A stretch of 62,954 bases of DNA, counting the filler, from Reclinomonas americana ATCC 50394 (taxonomy: Eukaryota), in the NCBI GenBank assembly GCA_048213135.1. It is 11 parts of 7 records of this genome, joined end to end, with 100 filler letters (N's around TTAATTAATTAA, not from the genome) between each part and the next. Parts side by side here need not be neighbours in the genome. Positions count along the whole stretch, not along the records: positions 24,464 to 33,543 come from PS015797.1; 10 more parts are not named here. One strand, written 5' to 3'. Positions 25,782 through 29,635 of the stretch are shown here, one piece after another; position 1 is the stretch's first letter, and each line of letters opens with the position of its first letter. A model generated the notes under the pieces. The model was not told the DNA's origin, made no database searches, and saw only the letters and a program-made list of their open reading frames with translations. A program made the translations under genes and the position numbers.

Positions 25782-26614
25782 CCAGCAAGGCAGTGGTAAG
25801 AATCCATAATTCTTGATAGCGAGCACGAGCGCTCGCACGTATGGAGATACACGCTCTGCGATCAGAGCAAAAGCAAATGTGAGGAAAAGAAGACGGCGGG
25901 TAGATAAAGTCACTGCACTACCGCCACTCACCGTTCTCGTGAGTTTTGCAGCCGTGGAAACTCGAATAGCCAGCGAACACATTCTCCGCCAGAGCTTTCT
26001 CGAACAGCCTTACATGTTCGATATGGCCCCGGCCGCTCACGCTAAAATGTATTTAAAAACACAAGTTCCTGTGGTGGGCACTCTGCAATCCATTCACATA
26101 CCTGTTACGCACACAGCAACAGTTTATCAACAACATGACAACCGCGCGCTCGGACATTTTCCGCCGCAGTTGGTTTATGCAGTCCTCGGTGAGCTTCAGC
26201 GAGTGCTTGCCGTTCACCTGCACATGCAATTGTCGGCAACCTTTCCCAGCACCCAATCTCAGTGAAATGACAAGCTCACCACGCGTGATCCGGAAATATG
26301 ATTGACATCGCTCGGGAGGAGCAAAAGATCCCCATCAATTGCCAGCCCGTGACCAGAGAAGAACAACAGTACGCACTCGCACTCCTCGCTCACATGATCA
26401 CGAACGAACTCGTCAAGCACAGCGTTCATGGCACCGCCTTCCACATCGACATTTTGGCAGACATGGAAGCCGATGCCCTCAAGCACTGGTCGCATAGAAA
26501 CTGCGCAACAGGTAAATAGAGTGGCACGTAAAATCGAGATGAGATGCTGTGAGAACGCACCAACATCGTGCGCAGGCTCCGTTAGCATGTGGTATTTTCC
26601 CAGGCCATCACACG
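25782..26614 (-). CDS. Caspase-like peptidase C14 (para/orthocaspase-type) domain, spliced, open at both ends
   Basis: Splicing 4 GT-AG introns gives GLGKYHMLTEPAHDV-SMRPVLEGIGF, VLLFFSGHGLAIDGDLLLLPSD (His 26349-26351), VMLLINCCCVRN (Cys 26116-26118), VFAGYSSFHG, VSPYVRALVLAI. Confidence 0.85.
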
Positions 26615-26634
26615 NNNNNNNNNNNNNNNNNNNN

Positions 26635-29600
26635 TACGATCAAGTCAACCTTGAGCTACAGGGACGAGAGCGCTTAGCCGATTATGACGATCGGCTTTCT
26701 GATATAGCACGCACTAAGTTCCGACTGAATAATTGTGCAGGTAAGCAGCCATACTTAGAGCTTGCTGTGTGCATCAGCGGCGAAGCTGATTCCATGTATT
26801 GACGATGGAAACGCCAGTACTTGAGTAATCTTTCACACTTCTTCTCATTCCCTTTGTGCCTCACAGCACCAGACAGCAGTCGCCTACCCAAGACACCGCT
26901 CATCGCCCGCGCCGTGAATCCAGTGACCGCATTCCGCTTCCCGAGTCGACGTGCTCTGGCCGCCTCTCTCGTCACGCGTATTGAGAATACCGTGGAAGGT
27001 TGGCTGCTCCTTGTAACTTCCCTCTTCTATCTCCACATATCGTGTGCCTCATCACTTGTTTGTGATTGCTTGCGCAGCACACCGCCCAATCATGGTGGTG
27101 TTGACGGGCGATGGTGGCACTGGCAAGTCGTTCCTAGCTGAGCTACTGGTGACAGAGCTGCAAGTTACTCGTCGATGGAAGGGATCTGCCGTGTCGGTGG
27201 AGATGCGTGGTCATGTGGGCGATGCGAGGGAGCATGTGAAGGTGTGCTGGGGGAACATGCGTGTTGTCTCTCCTACTGTCATTCTGACTCTCTCTCTCTC
27301 TCTCTCTCGTGCCGCACACCGCAGGCGGAGAGCGCTCTGAGCGAGTGCCTGCGTGCCTTTGTGACGGCGCAGATGCGAGTGGATGAAGTGAAGGGGAGAA
27401 GAATGGCCCTTCATGTGGATGCGCTGTTGGCGAGTGGTGAGATGGAGCCAGTGCGTCGTCTTCTGCGACAGCTGATGCACGCATCGAGTGGAGTGATGCT
27501 GCTGGACAATGTGGGATCGGCGGAGCAAGTGAGGAGTGTGGTTCAGTGTGCTGATGAGGGTGCGTCTGGTCATGAGAGAGAATTCTCATTCTTGCTTGGA
27601 TGTTTGATGCTAAATTGATGTGCATCATGTGTGTGTCTGTGTGCAGGTGGAATGGTGGCACCGATTGTGTTGGTGACGAGTCGATATGGACGAGTGGCGG
27701 ATGAGATTCGCGACTCGATGCACGAGGCGGAGGTGGAGTGTGTGCGAGTCGAGATCTTGGAGAACGAGGACATTGTACAGCTGGTGGAGGATCGGCTTCG
27801 CGGTGTAGTGTCAGGAGATGTGCGACGACGGATTGTGGAGGCGCTGGAGAGTGGGCAGCAGGAGAAGAGTGCACTGCGAGTGAGTGCTTGTGTAGGGTGA
27901 GTGGATGGGTGAGTGAGTGGCTTGTGGATGAGATGAGATGACTCACTCTTCTCTCTCTTCTTCATCATGCAGCTGGTTGCTGTCACGGTCAGCAGCACAG
28001 CTGGTGGGAGCGCGACTGGAAGAGGTGCTGAGTGGCATCGGTGGCGATGCACTGTCGCAGCTGCTGGAACGCAATGTGATGTCACAGACAGCGGCAGCAC
28101 GTTGTCTGTTGGTGCTGATTACGGCGTGCAAGGAACTCGACTTGCCGGTGACAGTGGCACTCGCACGAGTGGCACTGGGTGTGTTGCGAGTGATTCCCGA
28201 TATGACGATGGCTGTGGGTGGTGGTGATGGTGGGGAGCGGGCTGCACTGGATGAAGATGAGGAGGCAGCAAGCCGACTGGTAGAGTTGGGTCAGTGTGTG
28301 CGTCGACTGCGATTGCATGAGCTGGCACAGGAGAGGCGACGGCGTGCCCCCGCGGTGGTGGGTGAGCGGCTGCAGTTTGACGAGATGAGTGAGGAGGAGG
28401 AACAACGAGTGCGTGCACGGCGCGATGAGTTGGTGGGTGGTGGTGGTGGTGACGACGAGGTGGAGGATGTGCTGGAAGGTCTGTGTTTATCGAATCTGGT
28501 GACGGTGGGTGTCAGTGGCAGCATGGACAGTGTGGCCCGTGTACTATGTGGTGAGCAAGTGAGAGGGAGTGCTGGTGTGGTGGTGGAGTATCGAGTGCAC
28601 GATGAGATTGCTGGGTGGATTGTGGGACGGTGTGGCAATCAAGTGTCGCGGATGCAGCGACAGATTGTGCGACTTGTGTGTTGTGTGCTGAGTGGCATTG
28701 ATTCACGGAACGACAATGACGGTGTGCTATTGGTGTCGCGTGACTTGCTCGGTGTGCTGCAGAGGGTGTGGCGACGGTTGGGTGAGGATGATGGCATGTG
28801 GGCGAGTGATTCTGTTGGTGCGAATGGGCTGCTTGTACAATGTAGGGCGGTGGAGTGGATTGGTGAGGGGTGTGCCTTGGGAAGACTGCCGACTGTCGAA
28901 TTCGATGAAGCAGTGGCTTCATCGCTTGTGCGACGTGTGACAGAGTGTGGACAATGTGGAGTTGGTGATGTTGGGATCAGTCCAGCACGACGACGCTTTC
29001 CTATTGTTGTGGCAAAATGTCGAGCATGGCTGTTCTCCATGCTTCGTCTCTTGGATGAACACAATGCAGCTTGGCAACAGGCATGGCGTTTGTGCGAGGA
29101 GTGGGAAAGGGATGCCAGTGGCGAGATGACTGTGCTGGATAAGATTGACGCATTTCGCTGCTTTATGTGGTTTGCTTTTTATTCGAGCAAGTTGCTGCTG
29201 CTGATGCAGTGTCGTGAGCGGCAGTGTGCGATACTGGGGGAGAGCCATCCGGATACGCTGATGACGCTGTATACCCAAGGAACGCACTTCTACAATCGAA
29301 AGCATTGTGCTGATGCTGAGACACTCTTCCGACGGTGCTGGGAGATGCGACGAGTAGTTCTTGGAGCTGAGCATCCCGACACGTTGGCGTCCATGAACAA
29401 TGTTGCCCGTTGCATCCCCCTTGAACGAGAATGCTTGCAGTTGAGACGAGTTGCGCTGGGTGCTCGGCATCCGGATGGATTAGCGTCCTTGGACGCTGAT
29501 GCCTCATGTAGCCAGGATAGCAGTGGGGTGACCGATCTCTGGGGCAACAACAGCCACAGTCGCAGCAGCAACTGTCTCGCCTTAAGAGTGCCGTCGCCGC

Positions 29601-29635
29601 GCCAGAGAGTCCGCGGAGGTGCGGATGCTCTCTAA
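26635..29635 (+). CDS. NLR-like STAND (NB-ARC-like) NTPase with C-terminal TPRs, copy 1 (5' end in gap)
   Basis: Walker A VLTGDGGTGKS (GDGGTGKS at 27107-27130), Walker B VMLLDNV, sensor-1 IVLVTSR, TPRs LGESHPDTL / LGAEHPDTLASMNNVA; 6 exons. Confidence 0.85.

Follow-up and report, generated by a model that had tools for sequence, protein, structure and literature searches.

A putative caspase-STAND-TPR fusion gene divided by an assembly gap in Reclinomonas americana

In the genome of the protist Reclinomonas americana ATCC 50394, a small contig with a caspase-like (Peptidase_C14) fragment lies beside a gene for a predicted STAND-type NTPase with a TPR array, and the upstream ends of the two reading frames are turned to one another across a short run of N. 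We analysed both elements within a 63-kb window, that is, the whole stretch of DNA under study (62,954 nucleotides), which is eukaryotic and contains many gaps (32 N-runs). The contig is 833 bp long (25782–26614, with the Peptidase_C14 fragment on its minus strand) and is bounded on its left by a 403-N run (25379–25781) and on its right by a 20-N run (26615–26634), which separates it from the STAND gene and is of the smallest N-run size in the window. These gap positions were already part of the original prediction, made from this DNA alone, and were borne out. No overlap between contig ends was found in either of the two orientations, both of which were checked.

On the minus strand of the 833-bp contig, five exons form a stop-free frame of 573 nucleotides (191 residues) that is open at both contig ends and is interrupted by four introns of 60, 62, 60 and 76 nucleotides, all of the GT-AG type. 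Exon 1 (26561–26612, 52 nucleotides, open at the contig end) runs from the last part of strand 1 into the first part of helix 1, exon 2 (26280–26500, 221 nucleotides) contains the catalytic histidine in an SGHG motif at 26346–26357, and exon 3 (26102–26217, 116 nucleotides) contains an NCCC motif at 26113–26124, the second Cys of which falls on the catalytic Cys column. They are followed by exon 4 (25932–26041, 110 nucleotides) and exon 5 (25782–25855, 74 nucleotides), which encodes a helix ending in ...PCW and reaches the contig end, still open, on a codon boundary. As predicted for a spliced C14 domain on this strand, the open reading frame with exons 1 and 2 matched Pfam Peptidase_C14 (PF00656) with an E value of 2e-8 and 34.7 bits (gathering cut-off 21.4 bits), at profile positions 28–109 of 233. 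A C14 profile of our own, built from 21 bacterial domains, gave the spliced fragment 24.4 bits, the best of 1000 shuffles reaching 5.2; in the alignment, which continues from exon 2 across the junction into exon 3, SGHG falls on the fsGHG and NCC on the DaC catalytic column. The residue before the catalytic Cys is Asn, where Asp is usual. Judged by its sequence, the caspase-like fragment is real, spliced and equipped with catalytic residues.

Comparison with the same 21 bacterial domains revealed that the fragment starts within strand 1, with the first few residues of that strand missing, and ends in a helix after which the bacterial domains run on for ~45–60 further residues, which agrees with the C-terminal truncation noted originally. 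What is visible is less than a complete Peptidase_C14 domain, and both missing parts fall in gaps. A phmmer comparison of the caspase open reading frame with longer proteins (855 candidates) gave none at E≤10. In sequence searches of the PDB, the best real match of exon 2 was MALT1 (3v4o_A), with GHG aligned and a non-significant E value of 0.55, and exon 5 matched nothing. No second C14 domain was found in the 63-kb window by a Pfam scan of its open reading frames.

To the right of the 20-N run, from 26635, the plus strand carries the STAND gene, with six exons, 849 codons, a TAA stop at 29633–29635 and five introns of 76–126 nucleotides, all GT-AG. It had been described as an NTPase-TPR gene lacking a convincing start, and this description held: the frame runs open from base 1 of its contig and has no start codon, and the first Met stands only 6 residues ahead of the P-loop. 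The first visible exon (26635–26740, 106 nucleotides, equal to 35 codons plus 1 nucleotide) contains no Met and ends at a phase-1 donor, CAG/GTAAGC, that is compatible with the next exon. Homology with a second copy of the gene, paralog 2, starts in exon 2 (26867–26998), at PLIAR. Exon 3 (27078–27241) encodes a Walker A motif, GDGGTGKS, at 27107–27130, exon 4 (27325–27559) a Walker-B-like VMLLDNV at 27493–27513, and exon 5 (27647–27896) a VLVTSR motif at 27667–27684, while exon 6 (27973–29635) comprises an all-helical region, YRVHDEI at 28589–28609, the TPR array at ~29230–29480, a Ser-rich tail and the TAA codon. Pfam recognised TPR_10 (E 5.7e-10) and TPR_12 (E 2.1e-7) at the C-terminal end.

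The NTPase module had been labelled NB-ARC in the original prediction, a label that goes further than the Pfam results, in which the GDGGTGKS exon matched P-loop families below cut-off only (AAA_16, nSTAND3, NPHP3_N and NACHT; the best were AAA_16 with 21.1 bits against a cut-off of 32.6, nSTAND3 with E 0.01 and NACHT with E 0.2). A profile made from seven NB-ARC-bearing proteins aligned GDGGTGKS, VMLLDNV and VLVTSR in order and weakly, at 11.3 bits, a score reached by 0 of 500 shuffles, the best of which gave 8.3. The YRVHDEI motif has a counterpart, LIHDEI, in both paralogs 2 and 3, and we take it to resemble the His-Asp ('MHD'-like) motif of NB-ARC winged-helix domains. The gene product is thereby predicted to be a STAND-type NTPase of NB-ARC-like organisation, and is not a demonstrated member of PF00931. 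Ten exon-level pieces were scanned against Pfam, and no match to CARD or WD40 was found among them.

A search of 1.84 billion representative proteins with the 420 residues that separate the NTPase core from the TPRs returned none at E≤1e-3, and the ESM Atlas returned generic helical-repeat look-alikes only for this central region. AlphaFold modelling of the last exon, with three paralog rows, gave a mean predicted confidence (pLDDT) of 48.7. Only residues ~311–480 were modelled confidently, as TPR-like helices; residues 153–310 fell below 50, and the region preceding the TPRs appeared as low-confidence helices. A homologue search with the 567-residue frame of the last exon found 196 matches in 8000 candidates; every one was confined to the TPR part, with 10–35% coverage, and none came from the source organism. 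The spliced N-terminal 330 residues, compared by phmmer with 120 proteins from that search, matched nothing, and an exact 30-mer scan of metagenome contigs gave 0 matches. In the stretch 29230–29635, the TPR array itself is short, with ~2.5 units, and carries a 10-residue deletion inside a repeat; the last repeats present in paralogs 2 and 3 are replaced by the Ser-rich tail, and no TPR signal was found in the other frames.

The two further copies form a tandem pair on the minus strand of the window at 48753–53898. Paralog 2 (48753–52019) is 50–77% identical to the STAND gene and begins with its own ATG at 52019; its model includes two mini-exons and has only ~28 residues ahead of the conserved NTPase module, and no protease domain. 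Paralog 3 (52333–53898) consists of the C-terminal half only, without the NTPase half, with four TPR_10 stretches and a long poly-Q tail, and is cut by a linker gap at 53900. TPR_10 and TPR_12 are much stronger in these copies (E 3e-21 to 2e-27). A stretch of 491 bp (49747–50237 and 53408–53898) is common to paralogs 2 and 3 with 98.2% identity; it ends exactly at two gaps and suggests gene conversion or repeat-induced contig breaks.

Paralog 2 also allowed N-runs to be calibrated against the first copy (paralog 1), and both of the runs so calibrated (2/2) conceal ~0 bases. The 90-N run at 50239–50328 is flanked by 2 + 1 bases that make exactly one expected codon, and the flanks of the 100-base linker at 50956–51055 leave between −1 and +2 bases for a gap. 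The calibrated contigs abut, and the length of an N-run in this assembly is therefore no measure of the gap. Since both calibrated runs hide ~0 bases and the 20-N run is of the smallest size, it too is probably close to zero bases in truth. Linkers of 44 N, 12 bases and 44 N occur at 11 places, for example at 24364–24463, 50956–51055 and 53900–53999; the 12-base island was read at one place only, 51000–51011, where it is TTAATTAATTAA, with a stop in all six frames. Because this island is an artificial linker, the window is a pseudomolecule of joined contigs.

The probable closeness of the two contigs bears on their orientation. Read on its minus strand, the right contig has a stop within 1–7 codons of its end in each of the three frames, so the N-terminus of the caspase-like protein cannot lie there, and with a gap of ~0 and the present orientation two start-less frames collide. 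The original argument that a head-to-head pair is implausible thus stands on condition that the 20-N gap is small. With the same gap of ~0 and the 833-bp contig flipped, the caspase and STAND frames join in phase, since each contig end falls on a codon boundary; by itself this is a one-in-three coincidence. In addition, ~52 residues that precede the NTPase module of the STAND gene have no counterpart in paralog 2, and the missing part of the caspase domain is of similar size (~45–60 residues). The order that the flip would give, with the protease first, then STAND and then the repeats, also has precedents in bacteria and fungi. From the domains, motifs, open frames and gene models seen at the locus we infer a flip and a single transcript. 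That the 833-bp contig is mis-oriented, and that the locus would hold a single fused caspase-STAND-TPR gene, we consider somewhat probable; overall it is a plausible, unproven reading of a poor assembly.

A number of observations weigh against the fusion. It had been proposed that the first STAND exon, YDQVNLE...KFRL, is the missing C-terminus of the caspase domain, and this did not find support: adding the exon gave no gain with the C14 profile (23.8 bits with it, 24.4 without), and as good a score was attained by 202 of 300 shuffles and by 31 of the 62 natural controls of 35 residues. This comparison is of low power, since the profile alignment at no point covered the C-terminal half of the domain. 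The exon likewise matched nothing in the PDB sequence search, and a complex prediction with caspase exons 2, 3 and 4 and this exon as four chains scored 0.02 (mark 0.34), which favours neither side. None of the ten exon-level pieces matched Pfam NB-ARC (PF00931), and a homologue with a fused caspase-STAND architecture was not found in the protein searches made. The short, ATG-started N-terminus of paralog 2 indicates that the STAND-TPR family does not need a protease domain, and the stop of paralog 3 lies only ~320 bases upstream of the paralog 2 ATG. The locus could also be decaying, because its TPR array is eroded. Scaffolder orientation errors are uncommon, and the region is poorly assembled, in a window stitched together by TTAATTAATTAA linkers.

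Were the present orientation right, the locus would hold separate divergent genes, a small caspase-like protease and an effector-less STAND-TPR protein like paralog 2, possibly a linked protease/sensor pair, with both 5' ends and a shared promoter in a gap of truly several hundred bases. Paralog 2 is itself an effector-less member, N-run lengths are unreliable here (90 N stand for ~0 bases), and intergenic spacers can be short, as between paralogs 3 and 2 (~320 bases). However, the calibrated gaps err towards overestimate and not underestimate (2/2), whereas a run of the smallest size, 20 N, would have to conceal at least two coding 5' ends and a promoter. The 403-N gap would in turn have to fit the caspase C-terminus, its stop codon and 3' end and the promoter of the left neighbour. 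Chance adjacency of these two domain types is itself unlikely, with no other C14 found in the window, and we regard a divergent pair as quite improbable.

Alternatively, the scaffolder may have misplaced the small contig from another paralogous locus, or the locus may be truly rearranged, a real inversion in the genome or in one haplotype having broken a former caspase-STAND-TPR gene and left a decaying copy. Both versions draw on the state of the cluster, where contig breaks lie inside unique coding sequence at repeat borders (as with the 491-bp stretch, 98.2% identical, that paralogs 2 and 3 have in common), paralog 3 has lost its NTPase half, the TPR array of the gene at 26635–29635 is eroded and artificial TTAATTAATTAA linkers join the pseudomolecule. 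Against them, the small contig has no 14-mer in common with the rest of the window, and the 191-residue caspase frame and the 849-codon STAND frame contain no stops or frameshifts. Because both frames are intact and all nine introns (9/9) are GT-AG, an old pseudogene is not expected. Misplacement or rearrangement appears to us unlikely.

If the caspase and STAND frames do form one gene, it would lie on the plus strand in the order protease, NTPase, repeats, and would encode ~1,050–1,100 residues; the 403-N run (25379–25781) would conceal its start codon and strand 1 of its caspase-like domain. The product would have a short N-terminus, a divergent and catalytically equipped Peptidase_C14 domain, a link of ~50 residues, a lineage-specific NB-ARC-like STAND P-loop NTPase, and then the helical region and the short TPR array. 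By the logic of the STAND/NLR family, from which alone we infer a mechanism, binding of a ligand or protein at the TPR/helical end would release auto-inhibition, nucleotide exchange would let the NTPase modules oligomerise, and the protease domains thus brought together would be activated by proximity and cut substrates, giving a cell-death or defence signal. Such a protein might be called an 'apoptosome in one polypeptide', in which a caspase-fold protease, an orphan NB-ARC-like switch and a TPR sensor would be combined in one intron-bearing protist gene, within a tandem cluster whose other members have no protease; this we offer tentatively, with doubt slightly ahead of belief. If true, an executor NLR beside effector-less sensor NLRs would point to a division of labour with an origin independent of animals, plants and fungi.

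The left neighbour (24464–25378, minus strand) is one long frame broken by in-frame TGA codons at 25199–25201 and 24896–24898, of which the first is removable by a plausible intron and the second is not. It had no Pfam match, and the ESM Atlas gave only a weak lead to Dynamin_M (dynamin middle domain; 0.85). A pseudogene, read-through or a sequencing error could each account for the interrupted frame, and its two TGAs also led us to consider a sense reading of this codon. Ordinary eukaryotic genes surround the cluster, namely RabGAP-TBC, acyl-CoA dehydrogenase, SMC, NmrA-like, tubulin cofactor D, CotH kinase-like and CH-domain genes (1772–2823, 15685–17180, 18481–23900, 33907–34847, 36184–42246, 45873–47885 and 61996–62913). 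The tubulin cofactor D (TBCD) exon had a best identity of 62–65% in the protein collection, with top matches scattered over eukaryotes, which is consistent with a protist that has no near relative among sampled eukaryotes. Pfam searches of 106 open reading frames from the window pointed to no neighbour resembling gasdermin. The whole window abounds in (CT)n and (CA)n microsatellites, often beside gaps (for example at 6751–7353, 33646–34353, 44524–45018 and 55059–55325), which translate as SLSL... or THTH....

Effector-STAND-repeat proteins had been invoked as background in the original prediction, rightly so for bacteria and fungi as far as the sources consulted describe them (PMC3501461; 10.1101/2021.06.03.446900). 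Direct protease-on-NLR design is thought to precede the adaptor-based animal apoptosome and inflammasome. If the join is real, the locus would provide a protist example of this design, from a lineage without a close relative in the protein collections searched, and a simple, self-contained system in which to study the activation of a caspase-fold protease by STAND oligomerisation. If it is not, what is left, within a poorly assembled stretch, is a small orphan STAND-TPR cluster with a divergent caspase-like gene alongside, of modest interest.

The nearest known counterparts are the bacterial 'all-in-one' proteins, described in the part of the literature consulted as metacaspase/CHAT-STAND (NACHT or NB-ARC)-WD40/TPR proteins (PMC3501461). 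Among 35 bacterial C14 reading frames that we scanned, 2 (loci L082 and L108) have NACHT or AAA_16 downstream of C14 within a single frame. Provided that the contig is indeed flipped, the order of a caspase-fold protease, a P-loop STAND NTPase and C-terminal repeats is the same as here. In contrast to the bacterial proteins, the gene here is eukaryotic, with nine spliceosomal introns and a very divergent C14; the region after its NTPase has no detected relative, its array comprises only ~2.5 TPR units, and its fusion is putative.

Among eukaryotes, fungal NLR-like proteins are described as carrying CHAT or S8 proteases directly, without an adaptor-recruited caspase, in the portion of the source available (10.1101/2021.06.03.446900). 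These fungal NLR-like proteins, with HET-Q2-like CHAT or S8 proteases, resemble the present proposal in being eukaryotic and in bearing the protease on the NLR itself. As that source presents them, the fungal examples are of S8/NACHT/WD40 and CHAT type and are defined by a neighbouring gasdermin gene, whereas the protease here matches PF00656 and not CHAT. A 2014 survey of fungal NLRs gives 12 N-terminal classes, with no caspase listed in the sections consulted (PMC4986451). The caspase of the Apaf-1 system is, in the account consulted, a separate protein recruited via CARD domains, and the sensor is WD40 (PMC2246300). The logic would be common to the Apaf-1/CED-4 apoptosome with caspase-9, STAND oligomerisation leading to proximity activation of a caspase-fold protease, but the architecture differs, as neither CARD nor WD40 was found in the ten pieces scanned here. 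The paracaspase MALT1 has a caspase-like domain whose GHG aligned with exon 2, and at E 0.55 this can do no more than hint at the C14 branch to which the domain is most similar. In the part consulted of a survey of cell-death genes of protists, metacaspases were scored apart from NB-ARC/NACHT domains (PMC7539657), and no description of a protist C14-STAND-TPR fusion was found in the literature searched, much of it available in part, which is not proof of absence. If confirmed, the gene would plausibly represent a protease-STAND-repeat architecture already known from bacteria, and from fungi with CHAT or S8 proteases, that is new as a caspase-type fusion in a protist.

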